A stretch of 11,019 nt of DNA from Promethearchaeota archaeon (GTDB taxonomy: Archaea; Asgardarchaeota; Lokiarchaeia; Sigyniarchaeales; SOKP01): the NCBI GenBank assembly GCA_048941015.1, contig JBHLNZ010000094.1, positions 1 to 11,019 on the forward strand, read 5' to 3'. Shown here piece by piece: positions 1 through 11,019 of this stretch (position 1 is the first letter of the stretch; each line of letters begins with the position of its first letter). The notes below the pieces were generated by a model. It did no database searches. It was not told the origin of the DNA and was given only the letters and a program-made list of their open reading frames with translations. The position numbers and the translations under genes are program-made.

Positions 1-656
1 TAAGAATTTATGATCAACAAGAAACATTTAGACATTTTGGAAATGTAGAAAAAGCAAAGGATAAATTAATGGTTGTATTTGTATGTGAAGGAAAAGCTAA
101 GCTAGTCGATCTTGAAAAAATGGTAACAATTGAGAAATGTGAAAAAAACTCGGGTATTAATTGTGGCGAAAGTCCCGTAGAACATTGGTTTGAGACAAGA
201 TTCAGAGTAACTGAAACATCATCAATGCCACCATATAAGATTGTATTTGATACTATTGAAGTTGCTTCTTTATGGGAGAATGCATCAAAAATTTATCATG
301 CTGTTATTAATTCTATGAATAGTGTAAAAGGTAACCTCTTAATTACAGCTCATGTTTCACATTTTTATCCAAACGGCGTAGGAATTTATTTCAGTTTTGG
401 CGGAGTTCCACTAAAAGGAACTTCAGAGTTAGAATTTTATCAAAAATGTTGGAATACAATTATTAAAGCAGTTTTAGATTCTGGTGGTTCAATTGCTCAC
501 CATCATGGGATAGGTATTAATAGATCTCATTGGATGGAAAATGAATGGGGGAACGCTATGAAAGTCATGAAAGATTTTAAAAAAATGCTTGATCCAAACA
601 ATATTTTAAATCCTGGTAAAATTTATGAGCCAATATGGAGAGGTGGTGAAAGCTAA
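1..656 (+). CDS. FAD-binding oxidoreductase, VAO/PCMH superfamily, alkyl-dihydroxyacetonephosphate synthase (AGPS)/YgcU-like; C-terminal part only (5'-truncated)
   Basis: The frame is open from position 3 (RIYDQQETFRHFGNVEKAKDKL-MVV...), so ATG 69 is internal. Motifs are DTIEVA, AHVSHFYPNGVGIYF (Tyr codon 387-389), GGSIAHHHGIG (HHH at 498-506) and K..LDPNNILNPGK. These are typical of the FAD-oxidase C-terminal domain, and HHHG is typical of the AGPS-like branch. Confidence 0.85.
   Translation, partial: RIYDQQETFRHFGNVEKAKDKLMVVFVCEGKAKLVDLEKMVTIEKCEKNSGINCGESPVEHWFETRFRVTETSSMPPYKIVFDTIEVASLWENASKIYHAVINSMNSVKGNLLITAHVSHFYPNGVGIYFSFGGVPLKGTSELEFYQKCWNTIIKAVLDSGGSIAHHHGIGINRSHWMENEWGNAMKVMKDFKKMLDPNNILNPGKIYEPIWRGGES
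639..649 (+). promoter_or_regulatory. Shine-Dalgarno-like site (AGAGGTGGTGA) for the ORF at 657
   Basis: GGTGA ends 7 nt upstream of ATG 657. Stop TAA (654-656) directly abuts the ATG, suggesting translational coupling. Confidence 0.6.
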
Positions 657-1931
657 ATGGGTATCGAAGAGACTTTGAAAAAGTATAGCTGGATGGTACC
701 ACTACTCCAAGAAGCAGACAGAGAAACAAGATCAATATTAATGAAAAATTTTAGGCAAAAACATAAGAATTTTTACCCAGAAGAAGAAGTTAAAGCTGAT
801 GTCGATAATCTGATTAAATGTATGCTTTGTCCAAACATGTGTAGATTTGACTGTGGAACCCTACAAGCTTCACAAAAAGAAACTATGAGCCCCGCATATA
901 AGGCAAGAATAGGATATTATCTCACTATTGGAAAAATTGATCCTACAAGAGGAGAGAATAAAGAGTTTATTGATCTTATGTATAAATGTTCTAATGAAGA
1001 GAATTGTAAAATCTGGTGTCCTTTTGAATTCTCAGTCGTTTCATTACTTGAAACAGTAAGAGATGATTTGAATGATAAAGGATTAATGCCAGATTATTGT
1101 AAAGAACAAATTAGAAAACTAGAGAAATCGAATACTATAGAAGATTATAATATTTATGAAACTTATAAAGAGAAAGGAATTGAAAATATTGAAACTGATG
1201 GTAATGACGAAGTTTATTATTATATTGGATGCGAATCGATGAAATTTCCGAATGTAGTAAAAGCTAATATTGAAATTTTAAAAAAAGCTGGTGTTAAGTT
1301 CTCAACTAATTTAGACCAAAAAATTTGTTGTGGTGGACCTGCTTTCAATATAAGAGATATCAATACTGGGAGAAAGTTCGCTGAAAAAAATAAAGAATTG
1401 ATTAAAAAAACTGGTGCAAAAGTAGTTGTTTCTGATTGTCCTGGTTGTGTTTTAACATTAACGAATAGATATGAAAAGGCAGGAATTAAAATAGAAACTA
1501 AAGTCATACATATCGTTGAATATATAAAAGATCTTATTGAAAATGGAAAAATAAAGCCAGAAAAACAAATTCCTGAAGATTTTAAAATTATTACTATCCA
1601 CGATCCATGTTTAATTGCCAGAAATTTAAATGATACAATATCAATTAGAACGATTCTAAATAAAATACCAGGATTAGTAATTAATGAACCTATTTATAAT
1701 AAAGAAGATGTTCATTGTTGTGGTTGGAGCGGAACAGCTCATTGGGCAGATAGAAATTTAGCTATTAAGGAGGCAATAAACAGGGTTTCAGAATTAAAAG
1801 AAACTAAGGCATCGATTTTTGTTTCAGCATGCCCTCTTTGTGAATTAGGATTAGCATACGGATTAGATGAAAAAGAAAAAGAATATTATAAAATACTAGA
1901 TATATCTGAATTATTAATTAAAAGTCTTTAG
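657..1931 (+). CDS. Fe-S oxidoreductase subunit of the GlpC/GlcF/HdrD family (N-terminal ferredoxin-like motifs plus two CCG domains)
   Basis: Ferredoxin-like motifs CMLCPNMCRFDC (from 819) and CSNEENCKIWCP (from 987). CCG domain 1: YIGC...CCGGP...DCPGC. CCG domain 2: HDPC...CCGWSG...ACPLC. Confidence 0.88.
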   Translation: MGIEETLKKYSWMVPLLQEADRETRSILMKNFRQKHKNFYPEEEVKADVDNLIKCMLCPNMCRFDCGTLQASQKETMSPAYKARIGYYLTIGKIDPTRGENKEFIDLMYKCSNEENCKIWCPFEFSVVSLLETVRDDLNDKGLMPDYCKEQIRKLEKSNTIEDYNIYETYKEKGIENIETDGNDEVYYYIGCESMKFPNVVKANIEILKKAGVKFSTNLDQKICCGGPAFNIRDINTGRKFAEKNKELIKKTGAKVVVSDCPGCVLTLTNRYEKAGIKIETKVIHIVEYIKDLIENGKIKPEKQIPEDFKIITIHDPCLIARNLNDTISIRTILNKIPGLVINEPIYNKEDVHCCGWSGTAHWADRNLAIKEAINRVSELKETKASIFVSACPLCELGLAYGLDEKEKEYYKILDISELLIKSL

Positions 1932-1942
1932 AAAGTGATTTT

Positions 1943-3406
1943 ATGAGTGATCTGATATGTATATTTGATGTTGGAACAACTGGAGCAAGGACTGTAATCT
2001 TTGATATGAATGGGAGAGAAATAATAAAAGCTTATGAGGAGTATCAAATACCTAGACAACCAGTGGGGGTTTCAGAGCAAGATCCTCAGATTTGGTGGGC
2101 AGCGATAAGAAATACCTGTAATAAAGTAGTAAAAAGTGGAAAATTCAAGCCAGAAGAGATAATTGGAATCTCAGCAGCATTTGCTAGGGGAACAGTGACA
2201 TTATTAGACAATAACAATGAAATTTTGCATCCTGCACTCACTTGGATGGATGAGCGTGAATTAACTGATGCTAAGGGATTTAAAGAGGAATTAATTTGGA
2301 GAAATTCAATTCCTAAATTGCTCTGGTTAAAATCTAATAAACCTGAATTGTTTAATAAAGCTTCTAAAATTGTCTGGCCCGATTCTTTTTTATATTTAAA
2401 ATTATGTGATAAATTTGTTAGCGATCCCACTAATGGGATGAATGGTATTCTCCATCTTCAAACTTGGCGATGGGATGAAAGTCTTGCGGAAGCTTATGAA
2501 TTACCTGTATCTCTATGGCCTGAGTTACATATGCCTGGTGAAATTATTGGTGAGTTATCGTCTACTGCTGCGTCAATGCTTGGGTTAAAATCAAATACAC
2601 CAATAATTCTGGGTGGTGGCGATCAACAATGTGCCGCATTAGGAATGGGCGTAATTGAGAAAGGGCAATCTAAAGTAACCACCGGAACCGGTACAATGGT
2701 GGATTACGTAATAGATGAACCTAAACGGGTACATGGAGATGTCCCTATTTTCACATTTCCTCATTTAATTAAAGGAAAATGGGTGCTAGAAGGGGTTATG
2801 CCTGGCACGGGAACAATGTTTCAAACCTATGCGAAAAATTTCTCTCAATTGTTAATGAAAGAATGTGAAGAAAAAAATCTAAACGTATATGATATGCTAA
2901 CAAAAGAGGCTGAGACAGCTCCTCCTGGCAGTAATGGGTTGTTATTTATTCCTCTATATATATTTCGTAAAGGTACTATTCATGGATTAGGATGGCACCA
3001 TAATAGAGCTCACTTTGCCCGTGCGATAATGGAAAGTGCAGCCTTATCTGCACAAATGTACTTAAATCTGATTGAAGGATTTGGAGGAATTAAAAGTGAA
3101 ATCCTTAAATCAGATGGTGGAGCAATGAATAGTAGCTTTTGGGCACAAATATTTGCAGATGTAATTAATAAAAAGATACTTATTCCAGAAAATAAAGATG
3201 GAGCAGCAGTAGGAGCATGCATTTTAGGATTTTATGGCTGTGGAAAATATAGTACTATTTCAGATGCTATTAGTAAAATAGTTAGATTTAGTGATGAGAA
3301 AGTACCAAATAAAAATAATGCAAAAATATATAAGAAACTTAGTCGTATTTTTTTCTCTACAGTTCTAGAAACTAATGAAAAAAAGCGTGTAACAAAGGAT
3401 TTATAA
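1943..3406 (+). CDS. FGGY-family carbohydrate/polyol kinase (substrate unknown)
   Basis: Motifs DVGTTGAR, EQDPQIWW, WMDER, PKLLWLK, GGGDQQCAALG, TTGTG, PPGSNGLLFIP, RAIME, DGGAMNSSFWAQIFADV. Starts 11 nt after the upstream stop. Confidence 0.9.
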   Translation: MSDLICIFDVGTTGARTVIFDMNGREIIKAYEEYQIPRQPVGVSEQDPQIWWAAIRNTCNKVVKSGKFKPEEIIGISAAFARGTVTLLDNNNEILHPALTWMDERELTDAKGFKEELIWRNSIPKLLWLKSNKPELFNKASKIVWPDSFLYLKLCDKFVSDPTNGMNGILHLQTWRWDESLAEAYELPVSLWPELHMPGEIIGELSSTAASMLGLKSNTPIILGGGDQQCAALGMGVIEKGQSKVTTGTGTMVDYVIDEPKRVHGDVPIFTFPHLIKGKWVLEGVMPGTGTMFQTYAKNFSQLLMKECEEKNLNVYDMLTKEAETAPPGSNGLLFIPLYIFRKGTIHGLGWHHNRAHFARAIMESAALSAQMYLNLIEGFGGIKSEILKSDGGAMNSSFWAQIFADVINKKILIPENKDGAAVGACILGFYGCGKYSTISDAISKIVRFSDEKVPNKNNAKIYKKLSRIFFSTVLETNEKKRVTKDL

Positions 3407-3420
3407 TATAGATTTAATAA

Positions 3421-3442
3421 ATTTTCATCATTTTTTTATTCT
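3421..3442 (+). terminator. Possible archaeal oligo-T terminator after the three-gene module
   Basis: ATTTTCATCATTTTTTTATTCT lies shortly downstream of the kinase stop. The signal is weak against an AT-rich background. Confidence 0.3.
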
Positions 3443-3691
3443 CTACAATTTTAATTTAGTTATATTAGATTTTTTGCCTTTATTATGATATATAATTTAC
3501 AAAAAGGTATAACTTATTCAAATTGAACAATTAAAAATGAAAAAAATTCAATGATTTCTACTTTTCCGATTATTAAAAGTGGAAAATTTACGTTAGACAT
3601 TCAATAATTTTAAAGATTTTTTATTTTAGAAAAGTATTTTTTGTATACTTTATTTCAAAAATTATCAGTAAAATTTTATATGAATTCTTAC

Positions 3692-4528
3692 ATGCCTTTT
3701 TACAAGAATAAAGAGGGTTATAACCTCTATTATGAGGATATCAACGGAGAGCTTAAAGAACAAACAGAAGGAACCATTATCTTATTGCATGGTTTTGCTT
3801 CCTCAGCTTCTTTTTTTAAAGGGCAGATTCAAATATTAAAAGAAAATTATAGAATTATAGCTTTTGATGCATTAGGGCATGGAAGAAGTGAACATCCAAA
3901 ACAATTAAACTTATCAAAAAATTTAAGGCATGATATTATTAGAGATCTTGAAGATCTACTTAATTTTTTAAATGTTAATGAGCAATTTGGAATAATTGGT
4001 CATTCTTTAGTCGGAGGAATGATAGCTCAACTAATTTGCATGAAGCATCCAGAAAAAATTAAGTTTTTAGTGTTATTAAATTCTGGCTATATAATGATTG
4101 ATAACGTTATCAGAAACATTTTCTATAATTTACTTCCTTACTTCATTCGCATGAACTTTTTGGATGTTGTAGCAAATTCTGTTGAAAATATTTTGGATAA
4201 GATTATTCCTTATATATTGACTTCTTTAGCCGATTCAATCAATGGAATGAAATTGACTCGAGATGAATTATATATGCTTATTGAGGATCAAATTTTTAGT
4301 ATGATAAATGAAATAAATGAATATGATCCTTCTGGTATTAAATGTCCTACTTTAATTATCGGGGGAAGGCTAGATAATTTCGCACCTGAACAAATGTCTG
4401 AAGAATTGCACAAAAAAATTCCAAACTCTAAATTAAAAATCATCGATATGGCTGGACATTTCGCACCTGCTCAGCGAAAGAATATAATTAATGAGTTAAT
4501 ATGTGATTTTATTAGAAATCTTAAGTGA
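3692..4528 (+). CDS. Alpha/beta-fold hydrolase (Abhydrolase_1; lactonase/esterase/lipase-like)
   Basis: LLHGF oxyanion motif, FDALGHGRS, GHSLVGG elbow, PTLIIGGRLD (acid) and AGH (His). ATG 3692 (MPFYKNKEGYNLYYED, a typical N-terminus for this family) is preferred over the TTG at 3641. Confidence 0.85.
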   Translation: MPFYKNKEGYNLYYEDINGELKEQTEGTIILLHGFASSASFFKGQIQILKENYRIIAFDALGHGRSEHPKQLNLSKNLRHDIIRDLEDLLNFLNVNEQFGIIGHSLVGGMIAQLICMKHPEKIKFLVLLNSGYIMIDNVIRNIFYNLLPYFIRMNFLDVVANSVENILDKIIPYILTSLADSINGMKLTRDELYMLIEDQIFSMINEINEYDPSGIKCPTLIIGGRLDNFAPEQMSEELHKKIPNSKLKIIDMAGHFAPAQRKNIINELICDFIRNLK

Positions 4529-4569
4529 ATAATATATAGATACTCTAAATCAAATATTTTAATCTTTAT

Positions 4570-4941
4570 ATGACTTCAAATAATATGAATGATAATATAG
4601 CGACTATTTCTTTTTTTAAAGAAGAAATAGCTAAATTTGTTGAAGAACGTAATTGGAAAAAATATCACACACCTAAGAATTTAATACAAGCACTCGGGAT
4701 TGAGGTAGCGGAACTATCTGAAATCTTTCTTTTTAGAAATTATGAAATCTCAGAAATCTATGAAAATAAAAAGCTTTTAGAAAGTATGTCAGATGAGATT
4801 GCTGATATATTCATTTATTTAATAAGTTTAATTAATTGTTTAAAAATTGATTTATATGATACTTTTACTAAAAAAATGTTAAAAAATGAGAAAAAGTATT
4901 CTGTTCATGAATTCAATGATGGCACTTTTTATAAAAAATGA
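4570..4941 (+). CDS. MazG-like all-alpha nucleotide pyrophosphohydrolase (dCTP pyrophosphatase/RS21-C6 type)
   Basis: FVEERNWKKYHTPKNL...EVAELSEIF...DEIADIFIYL...KMLKNEKKY. The start could alternatively be ATG 4585. Confidence 0.88.
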   Translation: MTSNNMNDNIATISFFKEEIAKFVEERNWKKYHTPKNLIQALGIEVAELSEIFLFRNYEISEIYENKKLLESMSDEIADIFIYLISLINCLKIDLYDTFTKKMLKNEKKYSVHEFNDGTFYKK

Positions 4942-5033: not shown

Positions 5034-6014
5034 ATGAAAGCAGACAATATTGATGAAATTATAAAACAACAATTAGATAAAACGTTAGATGAAACTAACT
5101 TTCCTTCACTAGGAAAGCTTTATAAAGGAAAAGTCCGCGATAACTATATAAAAGAAAATATCAGAATAATTATAGCAACAGATCGTTTATCTGCTTTTGA
5201 TAGAGTAATAACTACTATACCTTTTAAAGGACAGATGCTAAATCAAGTTTCTGCTTTTTGGTTTGAAAAAACAAAAAATCTCGTTAAAAATCATATAATT
5301 GACATTCCAGATCCCAATATTGCTGTTGTACATCAATGTGAGATGATCCCTATTGAAATAATAGTAAGAGGATATTTAACTGGTACAGCATGGCGAAATT
5401 ATATAAAAGGAGAGTCAACTTCAGGTATAATTCTTGCTAAGGGATTAAGAAAAAATGAAAAGTTGGATAATCTTTTAATCACACCTTCTACTAAAGCTGA
5501 ATCCGGTCATGATATCTACATTTCAAAAGAAAGAATAATAAATGATAAAATGGTTGAAAAGGAAATTTATGAACAGATGGAAATTACTGCTTTAAAACTT
5601 TTTAACTTTGGACAGGAATATTGTAAAAAAAATGGCCTTATTATGGTGGACACTAAGTATGAATTCGGCATCAAGGATGGTGAGTTATTAGTAACTGATG
5701 AAATACATACTCAAGATTCTTCAAGATTTTGGATTCTTAACACATATCAAGAGAAATTTGAAAGTGGGCAAGAACCTGAGATTTTAGATAAAGAAATATT
5801 TAGAGGCTGGTTAATGGAAACATATCCAGAAATTTTTCCAAATATAAAACCAGAACAAAAAATTCCTCCCATCTCAATAGATATTAAAATAGAGTTAGCC
5901 AAGCGATATATGAAAAGCTATGAGAAAATAACAGGTTTAAAATTTAAAGCAGAAGTTTCAGATGTTAAAAATCGAATCTATGAAAATTTAAAGAAAAATA
6001 ATTATTTGAATTGA
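5034..6014 (+). CDS. purC: SAICAR synthetase, long form
   Basis: YKGKVRDNY, ATDRLSAFD, IPFKG, PIEIIVRGYLTG, TPSTKAESGHD, DTKYEFG, DEIHTQDSSRFW, LDKE. Confidence 0.96.
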   Translation: MKADNIDEIIKQQLDKTLDETNFPSLGKLYKGKVRDNYIKENIRIIIATDRLSAFDRVITTIPFKGQMLNQVSAFWFEKTKNLVKNHIIDIPDPNIAVVHQCEMIPIEIIVRGYLTGTAWRNYIKGESTSGIILAKGLRKNEKLDNLLITPSTKAESGHDIYISKERIINDKMVEKEIYEQMEITALKLFNFGQEYCKKNGLIMVDTKYEFGIKDGELLVTDEIHTQDSSRFWILNTYQEKFESGQEPEILDKEIFRGWLMETYPEIFPNIKPEQKIPPISIDIKIELAKRYMKSYEKITGLKFKAEVSDVKNRIYENLKKNNYLN

Positions 6015-6020
6015 GAATGG

Positions 6021-6035
6021 GAAAAGATTTATATA
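6021..6035 (+). promoter_or_regulatory. Archaeal-type promoter: purine-rich BRE (GAAAAGA) plus TATA box (TTTATATA)
   Basis: GAAAAGA-TTTATATA at 6021-6035, with 22 nt between the box and ATG 6058. This spacing fits a leaderless transcript. Confidence 0.55.
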
Positions 6036-6057
6036 ATCAATAGTAAATATTTTTATA

Positions 6058-6261
6058 ATGTTTAATATAATTTTGCTAATTGGTTCATTTGTTTTATTTT
6101 TAACAAGTGCTTACTTATTATTATTGGATTTAGGATCAAAAAATAGAGAGGAAAATATAGAAATAAAACGAAATTTACCAAAATTGGGAAGTTATAGTTT
6201 CTTATTAAATCTGATAGCTTTATTACTTTTAGTTTTTGTCAGCTTTGGCTATGATTTATAA
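6058..6261 (+). CDS. Small hypothetical membrane protein, 67 aa, two predicted TM helices
   Basis: Hydrophobic segments IILLIGSFVLFLTSAYLLLL and YSFLLNLIALLLLVFVSFGY flank a charged loop (SKNREENIEIKRNLPK). A promoter-like element lies directly upstream. Confidence 0.6.
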   Translation: MFNIILLIGSFVLFLTSAYLLLLDLGSKNREENIEIKRNLPKLGSYSFLLNLIALLLLVFVSFGYDL

Positions 6262-6394
6262 ATTAAATTTACCATAACCGTTTTGAAAATTCAATATTTA
6301 AAAATATTTCGAATTTTGTCTTATTTTGTCGGTGGAAATTATTTATTAATTAATAAGAACTATTAATATTATTATAAACTTTTTCTTTAAATAA

Positions 6395-6667
6395 ATGGAG
6401 CAGATAGAATATATAATAGAAGTAGTATTAGAAAATAAAAAAGCTGCTCGGGATCCAGTAGGAGAAACTATTAGAAGAGATCTTCTCGCAAAAAAAGGGT
6501 ATGATATGGTTCTAAACGTTAGAAGTGGGCAATATTTAAGATTTTATTTGAATGCAGCTAACGAAGAAGAAGCAAGCGATATTATAGAAGATTTACTAAA
6601 TAAATTAAGAATATATAATCCTGTTACTCAAAATTTTAAAATATTAAATATTTCACAAGAGAGCTAA
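6395..6667 (+). CDS. purS: FGAM synthase subunit PurS
   Basis: 90 aa with K..ARDPVGETI, VRSG and YNPV motifs; lies immediately upstream of purQ. Confidence 0.92.
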   Translation: MEQIEYIIEVVLENKKAARDPVGETIRRDLLAKKGYDMVLNVRSGQYLRFYLNAANEEEASDIIEDLLNKLRIYNPVTQNFKILNISQES

Positions 6668-6669
6668 AA

Positions 6670-7380
6670 ATGACCATCAAAATTGCAGTTATCCAATTTC
6701 CCGCAGCTAATTGCGATTTGGATGCAATACATGTATTAAATGAAGTAATAGGTGTTAAGGCTAATTTAGTCTGGCATAATCATTTTAAAGAAGCAAAATA
6801 TGATGGCGTAATACTCCCTGGAGGATTTTCATTCGGGGATTATTTACGTGCAGGCATTATAGCAGCTCATAGTCCTGCAATAGATGAAACAAAAATAATG
6901 TTAAAAGATGGAAGACCAATTATAGGAATATGTAATGGTTTTCAAATCCTAACGGAAGCGCAATTTCTTCCAGGTGCTTTACTTCAAAATGAATGTCTTA
7001 AATTTGTTTGTAAATGGGTAAATATTAAAGTAGAAAATAATCAAACAGCATTTACTAATAAAATGAAGATAGGGGATGTTCTTGACATTCCTGTTGCACA
7101 TGGAGAAGGAAGATATTTTACAGATAAGCTATCAGAATTGAAAGATAATAATCAAATTGTGTTTAGATACACCTCGAGGAATGGTGAGTATGGAGATAAT
7201 GTAAATCCTAATGGATCAATGGATAATATCGCTGGAGTTTGCAATTTAGAACAGAATTGTATAGGCCTTATGCCCCATCCTGAAAGAGCTTCTGAACCAA
7301 TTTTAAGTCCTTTTAAAACTTCTCATGGCAAATTATTTTTTGAGTCAATGATAGAATTTATAAAACGGAGACTGTCATAA
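6670..7380 (+). CDS. purQ: FGAM synthase glutaminase subunit PurQ
   Basis: FPAANCD, PGGFSFGDYLRAG, GICNGFQIL (catalytic Cys), PVAHGEG, NPNGS, GLMPHPER (His-Glu). Confidence 0.97.
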   Translation: MTIKIAVIQFPAANCDLDAIHVLNEVIGVKANLVWHNHFKEAKYDGVILPGGFSFGDYLRAGIIAAHSPAIDETKIMLKDGRPIIGICNGFQILTEAQFLPGALLQNECLKFVCKWVNIKVENNQTAFTNKMKIGDVLDIPVAHGEGRYFTDKLSELKDNNQIVFRYTSRNGEYGDNVNPNGSMDNIAGVCNLEQNCIGLMPHPERASEPILSPFKTSHGKLFFESMIEFIKRRLS

Positions 7381-9626
7381 TGACAAAATTAAGAGTTAAT
7401 GGAAAAGATGTAGGCGTAGAAATGACAAAGAATGAATATGGGAAAGTTAAAGACTTATTAAAGAGAGACCCTAATATAACTGAATTAGGAATGTTTGATG
7501 TCATGTGGAGTGAACATTGCTCTTATAAATCATCTCGACCTAAATTGAGATTATTTGAAAATGCTGAAGAAAACTATGATTATGTTTTAGCTGGTCCCGG
7601 TCAAGATGCTGGAGTAATAGATATTGGAGATGGATATGCTCTTGCATTTCGAATTGAATCTCATAATCATCCCTCTGCCATTGAACCCTACCATGGAGCC
7701 GCTACTGGAATAGGTGGCATAATTAGAGATATATTATGCATGGGAGTGCGTCCTATAGCTTTATTAGATCCTTTAAGATTTGGTAGATTAAAAGACAATC
7801 CACATTCACAATGGTTGTTTAAGTATGTAGTAAAAGGAATTGCTGATTACGGAAATTGTACAGGTATTCCTACGATAGGAGGAGAAGTTGAATTTGATGA
7901 CAGTTTTGAAAGTAATTGTTTAGTAAATGTTGCATGTATAGGATTGGGGACAATAGAAGATTTTAAGCACGCTCCTAGTAGAGCTTATAATCCTGGAGAT
8001 TATGTAATTCTAATGGGAGGTTCCACTGGAAGAGATGGGATTCATGGAGTAACCTTTGCTTCTCGTACTTTAACTGAGATGTCTGAAGCGGATAGACCCG
8101 CAGTTCAAATTGGTGATCCTTTTACAAAAAAAATGATTATTGAAGCGACATTAGAAGCTATTCAGACAGGTTATGTTAGAGGTTTAAAAGATCTAGGAGG
8201 AGGGGGCTTAACATGTGCAACTAGTGAATTAACTGGAGATGGAAATACTGGAGCAAATATTGATTTAAATAAAGTATTTACTAGAGAACCTGGTATGAAT
8301 TCATATGAGATTATGCTTTCAGAATCACAGGAGCGTATGGCTTTTATTGTCAAACCTGAAGGATTGGAAACTGTTCTGGATGTTTTCAGAAAATATGAGA
8401 TGAATCATGCTGTTATTGGCAAAACAGATGATTCAAAGATTCTTAAGGTATTCGATGGTGGGAATCTTGTAGTTAATATTCCTTCAAAAGCCCTCTCCGA
8501 ATCACCAATATTTATAAGACAGGAGAAACAACCTTCTTATCTTCATAAATTATTAAATCAAAATACTCCAAAACCAAATTTACAATTAGATGATATTTTT
8601 TATAAGTTAATAGCTTCTGAGAACATTTGCAGCAAAGAATGGGTTTATAGACAATATGATCATGAAGTTGGTGTCAGATCAGTAGTTAAATGTGGAGATG
8701 GAGATTCAGGGATTCTGAGAATAATAGGGACAGATAAGTTTATAGCAGCAAGTGTAGGGGTCAATTCAAAACATTGTTTCTTAGATCCATATCATGGTGT
8801 TAAGGGAGGATTAGTTGAACAATGCGGGAATATTATTGCGACTGGTGCAAAACCAATGGCTATGGTAAATTGTTGCAATTTCGGAAATCCTGAAATAGCA
8901 GAATCCTTCTGGTATTTTTCTAGGTCTGTTGATGGTATGAATGATTTCTGCAGAAAGTTAAAGATTCCAATAGTTGGAGGTAATGTTTCTTTTTATAATG
9001 AAGATGAAGTCAAGAAAATAGCCATCAAAGCTACACCTACGATAATGATTGTTGGTCTAATTGAAGGTGAAAAAAATATAATTACAATGCCTTTTAAAAA
9101 TGTGGGAGATGATATTCTCATAATTGGTGAAACAAAAGCAGAATTAGGAGGATCTGAATATCATTCTGTTATTCATAATCTTGAGGGTGGTAAACCCCCT
9201 AAAGTTGATGAAGATAAAATTCATGCGATATGGGATTTTCTTTTTAAACTATACGAAAATGATTTAGTATTAGCTAACCATGATGTTGATAAAGGGGGAT
9301 TTGTAATTACTATTGCTGAGATGTGTTTCAAAAATAAATTGGGTGCAAAGTTAAATTTAAGTTCCTATCATACCAATTCTCTAAGGGATGATGAATTACT
9401 TTTTAGTGAATCAGTGGGAAGATTCATAATTGAGGTTAATTCAAAAAATACAGATAAAATCTTAAAATTAGCTAAAGAATTTCATGTCAATGTTGAAAAA
9501 CTAGGTGTTGTAACTCCAGAATCAAAATTAAGTATTAAAGGATTAAAAACGGGTAATATTAATTTAGATTTGGAAAAGATGAAAAAATTGTATGATTCAA
9601 CAATCCCAGATCTGATGGATATATAA
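7380..9626 (+). CDS. purL: FGAM synthase synthetase subunit PurL (small type)
   Basis: MWSEHCSYKSS, ESHNHPSAIEPYHGAATGIGGIIRD, TGRDGIHG, VQIGDPF, DLGGGG, LSESQER, QYDHEVG, NFGNP, GGNVSFYN. Overlaps the purQ stop (TAATG, 7378-7382). Confidence 0.97.
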   Translation: MTKLRVNGKDVGVEMTKNEYGKVKDLLKRDPNITELGMFDVMWSEHCSYKSSRPKLRLFENAEENYDYVLAGPGQDAGVIDIGDGYALAFRIESHNHPSAIEPYHGAATGIGGIIRDILCMGVRPIALLDPLRFGRLKDNPHSQWLFKYVVKGIADYGNCTGIPTIGGEVEFDDSFESNCLVNVACIGLGTIEDFKHAPSRAYNPGDYVILMGGSTGRDGIHGVTFASRTLTEMSEADRPAVQIGDPFTKKMIIEATLEAIQTGYVRGLKDLGGGGLTCATSELTGDGNTGANIDLNKVFTREPGMNSYEIMLSESQERMAFIVKPEGLETVLDVFRKYEMNHAVIGKTDDSKILKVFDGGNLVVNIPSKALSESPIFIRQEKQPSYLHKLLNQNTPKPNLQLDDIFYKLIASENICSKEWVYRQYDHEVGVRSVVKCGDGDSGILRIIGTDKFIAASVGVNSKHCFLDPYHGVKGGLVEQCGNIIATGAKPMAMVNCCNFGNPEIAESFWYFSRSVDGMNDFCRKLKIPIVGGNVSFYNEDEVKKIAIKATPTIMIVGLIEGEKNIITMPFKNVGDDILIIGETKAELGGSEYHSVIHNLEGGKPPKVDEDKIHAIWDFLFKLYENDLVLANHDVDKGGFVITIAEMCFKNKLGAKLNLSSYHTNSLRDDELLFSESVGRFIIEVNSKNTDKILKLAKEFHVNVEKLGVVTPESKLSIKGLKTGNINLDLEKMKKLYDSTIPDLMDI

Positions 9627-9646: not shown

Positions 9647-9654
9647 AAGGAGTG
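9647..9654 (+). promoter_or_regulatory. Shine-Dalgarno site (AAGGAGTG) for the purF-like gene
   Basis: Lies directly upstream of ATG 9659. Confidence 0.65.
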
Positions 9655-9658
9655 TAAA

Positions 9659-11019
9659 ATGATCTTCAATAATAATAAAGTAAGAGAATCTTGTGGTGTT
9701 TTCGGTATATCGTGTAATGATTATAGCTATTCAGTTGCGGGCTTAATATATTCTGGTCTTATGGCTCTTCAACATAGAGGTCAATTATTTTCAGGGATAT
9801 CAATAAAAACTAATGAAAATAATATTATTACTTATAAAGATAAAGGATTAGTTTCAAAGGTTCTTAATCCTAAAAAGTTAAAATCCATGATTGGAAATGT
9901 AGGGATTGGTCATGTTTGTTATGGAAAACCTAACTGCACAAATGTTGATAATGCTCAACCTTATCATTCAAAAATTAATAATACAGAATTTTCAATAGCA
10001 ATGAATGGGGTTTTTAGCAATTATAATGAGATTCATAAAGAATTAAGCAAAATGGGAAGAGTATTTACTGGTAATTCTGATATTGAATTAATATCCGTTT
10101 TAATTGAAACGCTTATTAATCTTTTAGGGGATAGGATAAGTGCTATAAAGAAGTTATTCGAATTATTAAAAGGAGCTTATTCTATTATTGTTCTATTTAA
10201 TGATGGAAATATATATGCAATACGAGATCCTAAGGGATATAAACCTCTATGTTATGGGAAATTAAATATTGAAAACAAACTTTTTTTTATTATATCATCA
10301 GAATCATGTGCAATTGATGTTATAGGCGGCAATTTAATAGAAGACGTCTCGCCAGGAGAGATAATAAATATTCATCCTACTAATAAAATTGAAAAATATC
10401 AAATTTTAAATGAGGAAGTTTGCGGGGTATGTGAATTTGAATATATTTATTTTGCTAGACCCGATTCTATCATAGATGGAATACCAGTTGGAGATGTGAG
10501 ATATAAATTAGGACAATTTTTAGCTGAAACAGATGATTTTTTTTCTGAAGATGCTATTGTTGTTCCAATACCAGATTCGGGGAGGAGTGCAGCAATGGGT
10601 TATTCGTGGAAATCTAAAATTCCATATGAAGAAGGTTTAATGAAAAATAGATATATGTGGCAGCTTAAAAGTGAAGTTGAACAAAAGTTAAATCCTATTA
10701 AAGAAGTAGTAAAAGACAAGGATATAATTTTAGTAGATGATTCTATAATAAGTGGAAATACTATGAAAAAGATAATATCAATGCTTAGAAATGCAAAAGC
10801 TAACTCAATTCATGTACGAATTAGTTGTCCTCCTATTATAAAAAATTGCGAATTTAATGATAGCATATCAAATCGAGAGTTGTTAATAGCTTTTCAAGCA
10901 AAAGTTAGAAATTATGATAACTTTAACGAAGAAATGAGAAAATTTTTAGGAGCTGATAGTTTAAAATTTCAAAGTGTAGATGGGCTATTCAATGCTATTG
11001 GAACTGAAGAAAATAAAGG
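9659..11019 (+). CDS. purF: Amidophosphoribosyltransferase-like (PurF family) protein with degenerate active-site motifs; 3'-truncated by the window end
   Basis: Not in the ORF track because it has no stop codon in the window. Manual translation gives 453 uninterrupted codons: MIFNNNKVRES-CGVFG...LQHRGQ...GIGHVCYG...NAQP...MNG...SDIE...KGAYS...RDPKGYKPLCYG...SSESCA...CEFEYIYFARPDS...VPIPDSG...KNRY...LVDDSIISGNT...HVRISCPP...LGADSL. Confidence 0.9.
   Translation, partial: MIFNNNKVRESCGVFGISCNDYSYSVAGLIYSGLMALQHRGQLFSGISIKTNENNIITYKDKGLVSKVLNPKKLKSMIGNVGIGHVCYGKPNCTNVDNAQPYHSKINNTEFSIAMNGVFSNYNEIHKELSKMGRVFTGNSDIELISVLIETLINLLGDRISAIKKLFELLKGAYSIIVLFNDGNIYAIRDPKGYKPLCYGKLNIENKLFFIISSESCAIDVIGGNLIEDVSPGEIINIHPTNKIEKYQILNEEVCGVCEFEYIYFARPDSIIDGIPVGDVRYKLGQFLAETDDFFSEDAIVVPIPDSGRSAAMGYSWKSKIPYEEGLMKNRYMWQLKSEVEQKLNPIKEVVKDKDIILVDDSIISGNTMKKIISMLRNAKANSIHVRISCPPIIKNCEFNDSISNRELLIAFQAKVRNYDNFNEEMRKFLGADSLKFQSVDGLFNAIGTEENK

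Follow-up and report, generated by a model that had tools for sequence, protein, structure and literature searches.

A divergent purF paralogue closing a Lokiarchaeal purine operon retains catalytic residues and lacks putative glutamine-anchoring and channel-gating elements

Introduction

Duplicated purF genes have been known in archaea since 2011 with PurF' of Crenarchaeota, a class whose hallmark is that the catalytic Cys at the N-terminus is replaced by Ala, Val and other residues (Brown et al. 2011, PMC3261824). In Methanocorpusculum labreanum, the recent purF duplicate Mlab_0150 carries a Ser instead of Cys1 (PMC3261824). In PurF, closure of the flexible loop is needed for the formation of the ammonia channel (PMC7056826). 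Here we analyse a purF paralogue, termed purF-B, present at positions 9659-11019 of a stretch of 11,019 bp that is an entire contig (G000:C42) of a Lokiarchaeal (Promethearchaeota) metagenome-assembled genome (MAG) and that is referred to below as the window. The source MAG, G000, consists of 3.59 Mb in 144 contigs, with a completeness of 95% and a contamination of 5%. A literature search on divergent archaeal PurF paralogues gave Brown et al. 2011 as the only relevant report, and a type that retains the nucleophile and carries a truncated loop is not described in the literature searched.

Results

The product of the open reading frame (ORF) at 9659-11019 has the two-domain arrangement of PurF, with Pfam matches to GATase_7/GATase_6 (class-II glutaminase) and Pribosyltran, and its best solved relative is the Bacillus subtilis enzyme 1ao0 (E 1.9e-76, residues 12-460, 35% identity). 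No stop is present in frame and the ORF continues past the contig end. As full-length relatives of the same clade measure 476-480 amino acids (aa), the window copy is short by ~26 C-terminal residues, a CxxC pair among them. For the closest full-length homologue, P0003 (479 aa, 93% identity), the AlphaFold2 (AF2) model reaches a predicted local distance difference test (pLDDT) score of 88.7 and a predicted template modelling (pTM) score of 0.88, and aligns to 1ao0 with TM scores of 0.82/0.86.

Genome searches combined with BLAST separated three PurF types within the order: A, the canonical type (~507 aa, 42-47% identical to the window ORF and 46-50% to clade B); B, to which the window ORF belongs (~478 aa); and C (~465 aa, 28% identical to the window ORF). 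On TIGR01134, the purF equivalog model (EC 2.4.2.14, cut-off 350 bits), clade A copies score 407-479 bits, type B ~330 bits and type C ~180 bits. The truncated window ORF, with 329.2 bits, is under the cut-off, and so are full-length clade-B copies (338.5 bits in G003 and 327.4 bits in G024). A search of the ESM Atlas returned ordinary PurF clusters only.

From E. coli and B. subtilis enzymology, we take Arg73 and Thr76 to be the anchors of the glutamine alpha-carboxylate and Asp127 that of the alpha-amino group, and the YGID region to adjoin the allosteric nucleotide site. Residue counts were made on 51 members of clade B, compared with 23 members of clade A, 32 other PurFs and 6 members of type C. 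The gene and its motifs, including those of the loops for pyrophosphate (PPi) and phosphoribosyl pyrophosphate (PRPP), are as follows.

9649..9652, + strand: GGAG, a ribosome-binding motif read directly in the sequence, with 6 nt between it and the ATG at 9659
9659..11019, + strand: purF paralogue of clade B, 453 codons seen, 3' end cut by the contig end
9692..9694, + strand: Cys12, the N-terminal nucleophile (Ntn), which becomes Cys1 on removal of an 11-aa propeptide and aligns with Cys1 of 1ao0; Cys in 51/51
9770..9784, + strand: QHRGQ (Arg26/Gly27), kept in 51/51; the acidic residue after it is now Leu
9908..9928, + strand: GHVCYGK, with Cys87 at the Arg73 position and Lys90 at the Thr76 position; both canonical residues lost
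10004..10009, + strand: Asn116-Gly117, the oxyanion hole Asn101/Gly102, kept (Asn 49/51, Gly 51/51)
10079..10081, + strand: Asp141 at the Asp127 position, kept in the window; Asp in 35/51 (69%) of the clade
10430..10432, + strand: Cys258, first [4Fe-4S] ligand (CxFEYIYFARPDS), aligned to the matching Cys of 1ao0; 51/51
10571..10579, + strand: Pro-Asp-Ser of the PPi loop, kept (50-51/51)
10643..10693, + strand: KNRY...KLN, remodelled flexible loop of the phosphoribosyltransferase (PRTase) domain, with 10 residues between NRY and Lys
10733..10762, + strand: VDDSIISGNT, PRPP loop; Asp-Asp-Ser and the final Thr kept, the invariant Arg being Ser365
10847..10864, + strand: CEFNDS; Cys397, second Fe-S ligand, kept; the Gly of YGID is Asn400 and its Asp is lost

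The baseline for conservation was a set of 83 alignment columns conserved in both clade A and the 32 diverse PurFs. Clade B keeps 62 of these columns, keeps 8 in part and has lost 13, and since the lost columns cluster in the altered motifs, the changes are not due to chance. In the glutaminase half, Arg73 is present in 0/51 members, with Cys, Gly, Ser, Ala or Asn instead, compared to 23/23 in clade A and 31/32 in the other PurFs. Position 76 is a Thr in only 4/51 members, Tyr74 is partly kept (76%) and the acidic residue following QHRGQ is lost in the clade. In the PRTase half, the NRY-to-Lys loop counts 10 residues in clade B versus 19 in 133 of 143 representative PurFs (range 17-21, from a MAFFT alignment of 145 representatives run with a faster setting). 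Through this 9-residue deletion the Arg, Phe, Ile, Pro and second Arg of the flexible loop are gone (GRTFIQPSQALR region, alignment to 1ao0); Lys-Asn-Arg-Tyr and the loop Lys are kept in 49-51/51 members, and the remodelled loop holds a conserved Trp (NRYxW) that is common to clade A. The PRPP loop retains Asp-Asp (51/51), Ser368 (49/51), Gly (51/51) and the final Thr374 (51/51), while its invariant Arg has become Ser in 51/51 members and the neighbouring Thr is lost as well. In the CxYGID motif, Gly is replaced by Asn in 49/51 members and Asp is lost; Ser365 and Asn400 are invariants specific to the clade. The [4Fe-4S] cysteines are 98-100% conserved, Cys455 and Cys458 lying past the contig end in the window and being present in 50/51 relatives, and a conserved C-terminal Tyr is replaced by Cys in 35/51 members.

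These results can be set against the original prediction, made from the DNA letters of the window, which described an intact ORF for a catalytically eroded PurF. The ribosome-binding motif and the open frame are as it described, the altered motifs lie exactly where it placed them (9908-9928, 10001-10012, 10733-10762 and 10847-10864), and the alignment to 1ao0 confirmed the change of Arg73 to Cys, the loss of the GRTFI loop, the change of the PRPP-loop Arg to Ser and the loss of Gly and Asp from CFYGID. Conservation of the fold, which it had also proposed, is borne out by the AF2 model. The replacement of HNGN by MNGV is present too, but was rejected as a functional loss: the His of HNG, a Met in the window, is Phe or Tyr in the canonical clade A of the same family, so that its replacement carries no weight, and Asn101/Gly102 are kept. 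The term pseudoenzyme was an overstatement, as Cys1, Arg26/Gly27, Gly102, the PPi loop, the Asp-Asp of the PRPP loop and Thr374 stand at 100% in the 51 members (50-51/51 across the PPi loop residues).

Among the 143 representatives, 8 PurF-like proteins of other lineages have Cys1 and lack Arg73 (P0147, P0157, P0161, P0183, P0188, P0211, P0235 and P0260), and some further ones are without Cys1. To judge from these sequences, PurF seems to have given rise more than once to divergent paralogues, of several kinds.

Recent decay of purF-B, a possibility raised with the original prediction, is ruled out. The ratio of nonsynonymous to synonymous substitution rates (dN/dS) between the window gene and three relatives (77-93% protein identity) is 0.12-0.16, compared to 0.05-0.15 for purC, purS, purQ, purL and the hydrolase gene. 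Both halves of the protein are constrained, with values of 0.13-0.21 for the glutaminase (Ntn) half and 0.08-0.10 for the PRTase half. No disrupted copy was found, the frames being intact in 17 genomes and in 53 clusters of a wider protein database that extend down to 52% identity. Two apparent exceptions were rejected. The single TAG of the G052 copy is upstream of the Met-Cys start and leaves the ORF intact; database entries starting with MALQHRGQ, which look like Cys-less isoforms, are preceded by an open frame coding for CGVFG, with TTG, or possibly ATT, as the start codon. In two clade-B genes, ATG, GTG and TTG are all missing 5' of the conserved Cys (L048:8969-9004 in G143, and L069:2899-2935), in a frame that is open and conserved. 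ATT appears to be their only plausible start, and because of this gene callers shorten both proteins and begin them at an internal Met.

In a maximum-likelihood tree of 113 PurF sequences, clade B is monophyletic, with a support of 100 in the SH-like approximate likelihood ratio test (SH-aLRT), and is nested among Lokiarchaeal PurFs. Its sister group is clade A of the window's own family, f1 (SH-aLRT 97), and the A sequences of three sister families fall outside. On this topology, purF-B arose through duplication of purF roughly at the root of the window's Lokiarchaeal family. The original prediction had suggested testing whether the substitutions mark out a conserved clade that is under purifying selection, and this was upheld. 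The gene is present in 17 of the 135 genomes of family f1, in 10 genera, and absent from 265/265 other genomes sampled across the phylum. It lies directly 3' of purL in all 17. Most genomes of the window's own genus are without purF-B and have an otherwise intact operon; purF-B is therefore an accessory, dispensable gene.

Clade A is carried by 15 of the 17 genomes with purF-B and is not encoded beside it. A canonical PurF encoded elsewhere had been suggested on the basis of the window, possibly just downstream; the first part stands for these 15 genomes, the second does not, as no second purF was found directly 3' of purF-B in close relatives, where a 68-69 aa ORF comes next, followed by a convergent haloacid dehalogenase (HAD) hydrolase gene. 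In a sister family, a canonical purF occupies the equivalent slot (purC-purL-purQ-purF in G032), and in one genus the slot after purL is occupied by C then A.

Paralogue C was located at three loci, in each case a PurF-like protein of ~465 aa.

L037:5230-6630 (G024), strand not stated: paralogue C
L067:8703-10103 (G143), strand not stated: paralogue C
L066:8218-9618 (G048), strand not stated: paralogue C

In C, Cys1 is a Gly in 6/6 members, Arg26, Asn101 and Asp127 are replaced and the segment of Arg73 is deleted, while the long flexible loop and DSxVRGT are kept, a pattern opposite to that of B. Paralogue C is 67-83% identical across four families, is found in 98 of 154 genomes and is usually tail-to-tail with the canonical purF, the order being purL-C-A in G048. 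By its sequence, it seems to correspond, in Lokiarchaea, to the PurF' of Crenarchaeota. The archaeal purF duplicates mentioned in the original prediction do exist in the literature (PMC3261824), but that class matches paralogue C and not purF-B. Counts that ignore shared ancestry give 4 genomes with and 13 without C among those that carry purF-B, and 85 with and 33 without C among those that lack it, which hints that B and C are accessory paralogues that may be alternatives. A heteromer in which B would supply the glutaminase and C the PRTase was considered and is unlikely, since B and C tend to exclude each other and only 4/17 genomes with purF-B hold C.

No purF other than purF-B was found in the 95%-complete assembly of G000. 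In the closest relatives, C and A lie beside hypE, hypD and hypF, and in G143 also beside hisF and hisH; none of these five genes was found in the G000 assembly. Partners of the same pathways are present, namely hisD (contig C44) and a NiFe-hydrogenase large subunit gene (C53:7480-8670), and purD is present too. As the hyp/his neighbourhood of A is lacking although its pathway partners are there, the contig with this region was probably not assembled or binned, and the organism itself probably does have A.

The operon that purF-B ends (5034..9626 before it) contains the following genes.

5034-6014, + strand: purC
6395-6667, + strand: purS
6670-7380, + strand: purQ
7380-9626, + strand: purL, directly preceding purF-B

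The purL stop and the purF-B start are separated by 32 nt, and the order purC-purS-purQ-purL-purF-B is common to the 17 genomes. Upstream of purC (3-4941), the window encodes a GlcD-like oxidase fragment, a CCG Fe-S protein, an FGGY kinase, an alpha/beta hydrolase and a MazG-like protein, in an order kept in several genera of the family. The gene for the MazG-like nucleotide pyrophosphohydrolase is directly 5' of purC throughout the genera compared; in the contig of the closest relative, an IS605 OrfB/TnpB (Cas12f-like) gene that is absent from the window sits between the two (L044:1331-2608). The purS and purQ genes of the window (6395-7380) are identical in nucleotide sequence to L044 4031-5016 of a related MAG (synonymous divergence, dS, of 0), whereas dS is 0.17-0.42 in the flanking purC, purL and purF-B, which suggests a recent recombination tract within the operon. 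No purM was found at the TIGR00878 cut-off in 13/13 genomes of the order examined. The best candidates are divergent ORFs of the AIRS family (396-402 aa, 57-116 bits) at G000:C3:30058-31059 and in 12 related genomes, and either purM is highly divergent in these genomes or the step is done otherwise.

A conserved ORF of 55-69 aa with a CxxC motif (MRARACIKCKEY...) is the last gene of the pur operon in all genomes examined, whether or not they carry purF-B, and is expected just past the 3' end of the window from its position in relatives.

L045:11579-11788, strand not stated: small CxxC ORF
L044:8887-9093, strand not stated: small CxxC ORF

No Pfam hit is on record for this ORF. It was considered as a partner specific to purF-B and rejected, as it comes straight after purL in relatives lacking purF-B and after A in G048. 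A second copy, 62% identical, is present at G000:C60:3314-3511.

Discussion

On the sequence comparisons, we tentatively favour the reading in which purF-B encodes an accessory PurF variant that is still catalytic, differs in its regulation and in how it handles the nitrogen donor, and coexists with A. Since the duplication at the root of the family, B has been maintained as the final enzyme gene of the purC-purS-purQ-purL operon. It would have remained enzymatic, with its Ntn nucleophile, oxyanion hole, PRPP and PPi loops and [4Fe-4S] ligands retained, and would have given up tight coupling and feedback control with the Arg73/Thr76 anchors, the long loop that closes on PRPP and forms the channel, and the YGID region. 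The inferred product of B is phosphoribosylamine, or a closely similar compound, supplied to the purine pathway. The nitrogen donor would be handled differently, with poor or no canonical glutamine binding and the use of another amide or of free ammonia, and the enzyme would operate without canonical interdomain coupling and end-product control. Selection on the catalytic residues of B, whereas C lost its own, argues against a classic dead pseudoenzyme, and the disappearance of the presumed glutamine alpha-carboxylate anchors and of the channel-building loop argues against an ordinary PurF.

Several points weigh against this proposal. The positions of Arg73, Thr76 and Asp127 are variable within B, with no new conserved residue, which looks like relaxation and not like a new specific pocket. 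Clade B evolves about 2x faster than A, the mean identity within the clades being 55% versus 73%. Two genomes, G000 and G074 (completeness 91%), have B without A, and replacement of A by B in some lineages is possible. Lastly, loss of Arg73 and Thr76 together with the Arg, Phe and Ile of the loop would be expected to cripple a canonical PurF, and this leaves room for a non-catalytic or partner role (for loop closure, see PMC7056826).

In its explicit form, which was the main idea of the original prediction, this role would be that of a regulatory or structural partner: mixed tetramers with A would tune activity or feedback, and the sites of B would bind PRPP or nucleotides, or act as an Fe-S sensor, without turnover. 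We regard it as rather unlikely. Recently diverged copies of an enzyme that forms homotetramers are able to co-assemble, A accompanies B in nearly all genomes (15/17), the elements lost in B are those that couple and gate catalysis, and B is dispensable and often lost. The negative association between B and the Cys-less C keeps this model alive, as both could share an accessory role needing no glutaminase; this association ignores shared ancestry, however, and the two genes are together in four genomes. B is also not encoded beside A. More directly, Cys1, Arg26/Gly27 and Gly102 are at 51/51 and Asn101 at 49/51 despite 45% divergence, and C has lost exactly these residues.

Two readings give purF-B another chemistry. 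In the first, which we hold to be unlikely, B would be a new Ntn-cysteine/PRPP enzyme activity that no longer recognises free glutamine or relies on a gated ammonia channel, uses a different amide donor or yields a product other than phosphoribosylamine, feeds the purine operon of one Asgard family and functionally replaces C in several genera. In the second, also unlikely, B would be a repurposed Ntn-PRTase that combines PRPP with amide-derived nitrogen or another nucleophile in a different reaction, or that hydrolyses a different amide. Such repurposing would agree with catalytic residues that are kept next to changed substrate-anchoring residues, with the clade-specific Ser365 and Asn400 and with the remodelled loop and its conserved Trp. 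The Trp is also found in clade A, however, and the changed positions of the glutamine pocket are variable instead of newly conserved. The position after purL is moreover invariant in 10 genera, with no new neighbouring genes that point to another pathway.

It is improbable that purF-B is the sole and fully functional glutamine-dependent PurF of G000, its substitutions being tolerated and A lost. This reading can call on the assembly, 95% complete and without another purF, on the canonical purF slot of the related family (G032) that B occupies, and on the presence of purD and purCSQL. It has to contend with the absence from the assembly of the whole hyp/his neighbourhood of A while pathway partners are present, and with the near-universal Arg73 and 19-residue loop of PurFs. 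A is besides retained in 15/17 genomes with B, and genomes with B show no excess of A losses: the frequency at which A is missing is the same without B (17/118) as with it (2/17). Finally, a recently inactivated gene drifting to a pseudogene, as the faster evolution of B relative to A and to the neighbouring genes and the TIGR01134 score under the cut-off might suggest, is barely credible given the dN/dS of 0.12-0.16, the unbroken frames of the copies in 17 genomes and in the 53 database clusters, and the explanations found for the G052 TAG and for the entries starting at an internal Met.

Clade B is a duplicate of a different kind from the Cys-less PurF', as the residues of chemistry are kept and the putative glutamine-anchoring, channel-gating and YGID parts discarded. 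One Lokiarchaeal family holds three PurF types: A, which is canonical; B, with the nucleophile kept and gating lost; and C, with the nucleophile lost and gating kept. This set may be seen as a natural dissection of which parts of a textbook channelling enzyme serve what, in tractable proteins to express. As the B genes are labelled amidophosphoribosyltransferase in databases, they should not, on their own, serve as a basis for inferring purine prototrophy in Asgard MAGs.

Among the known systems, the canonical [4Fe-4S] PurF of B. subtilis (1ao0/1gph) shares with B the full-length two-domain fold, a propeptide ahead of Cys1, an intact oxyanion hole, both the PPi and the PRPP loop, the four Cys ligands of the cluster and the context of a purine operon. 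Clade B differs by the loss of Arg73/Thr76, the partial retention of Asp127, a flexible loop shorter by 9 residues, the Ser at the PRPP-loop Arg, the loss of the YGID Gly and Asp and the extra C-terminal Cys in 35/51 members. Lokiarchaeal clade A, the sister group, resembles B in the Trp of NRYxW and in the non-His residue before Asn-Gly. In contrast with B, clade A is complete in the 83 canonical columns, having served to define them, evolves more slowly and is usually encoded tail-to-tail with C instead of after purL. Crenarchaeal PurF' is, like B, a second divergent purF-like gene retained near archaeal purine genes (PMC3261824). PurF' is encoded close to purF as well as to other purine genes, and B beside purL (17/17 genomes) and not beside the canonical purF; B also keeps the N-terminal Cys in 51/51 members. 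Mlab_0150 is, like B, a lineage-specific recent purF duplicate with altered active-site residues; there the change affects the nucleophile itself, whereas B retains its nucleophile and is altered in the elements for substrate anchoring and gating.

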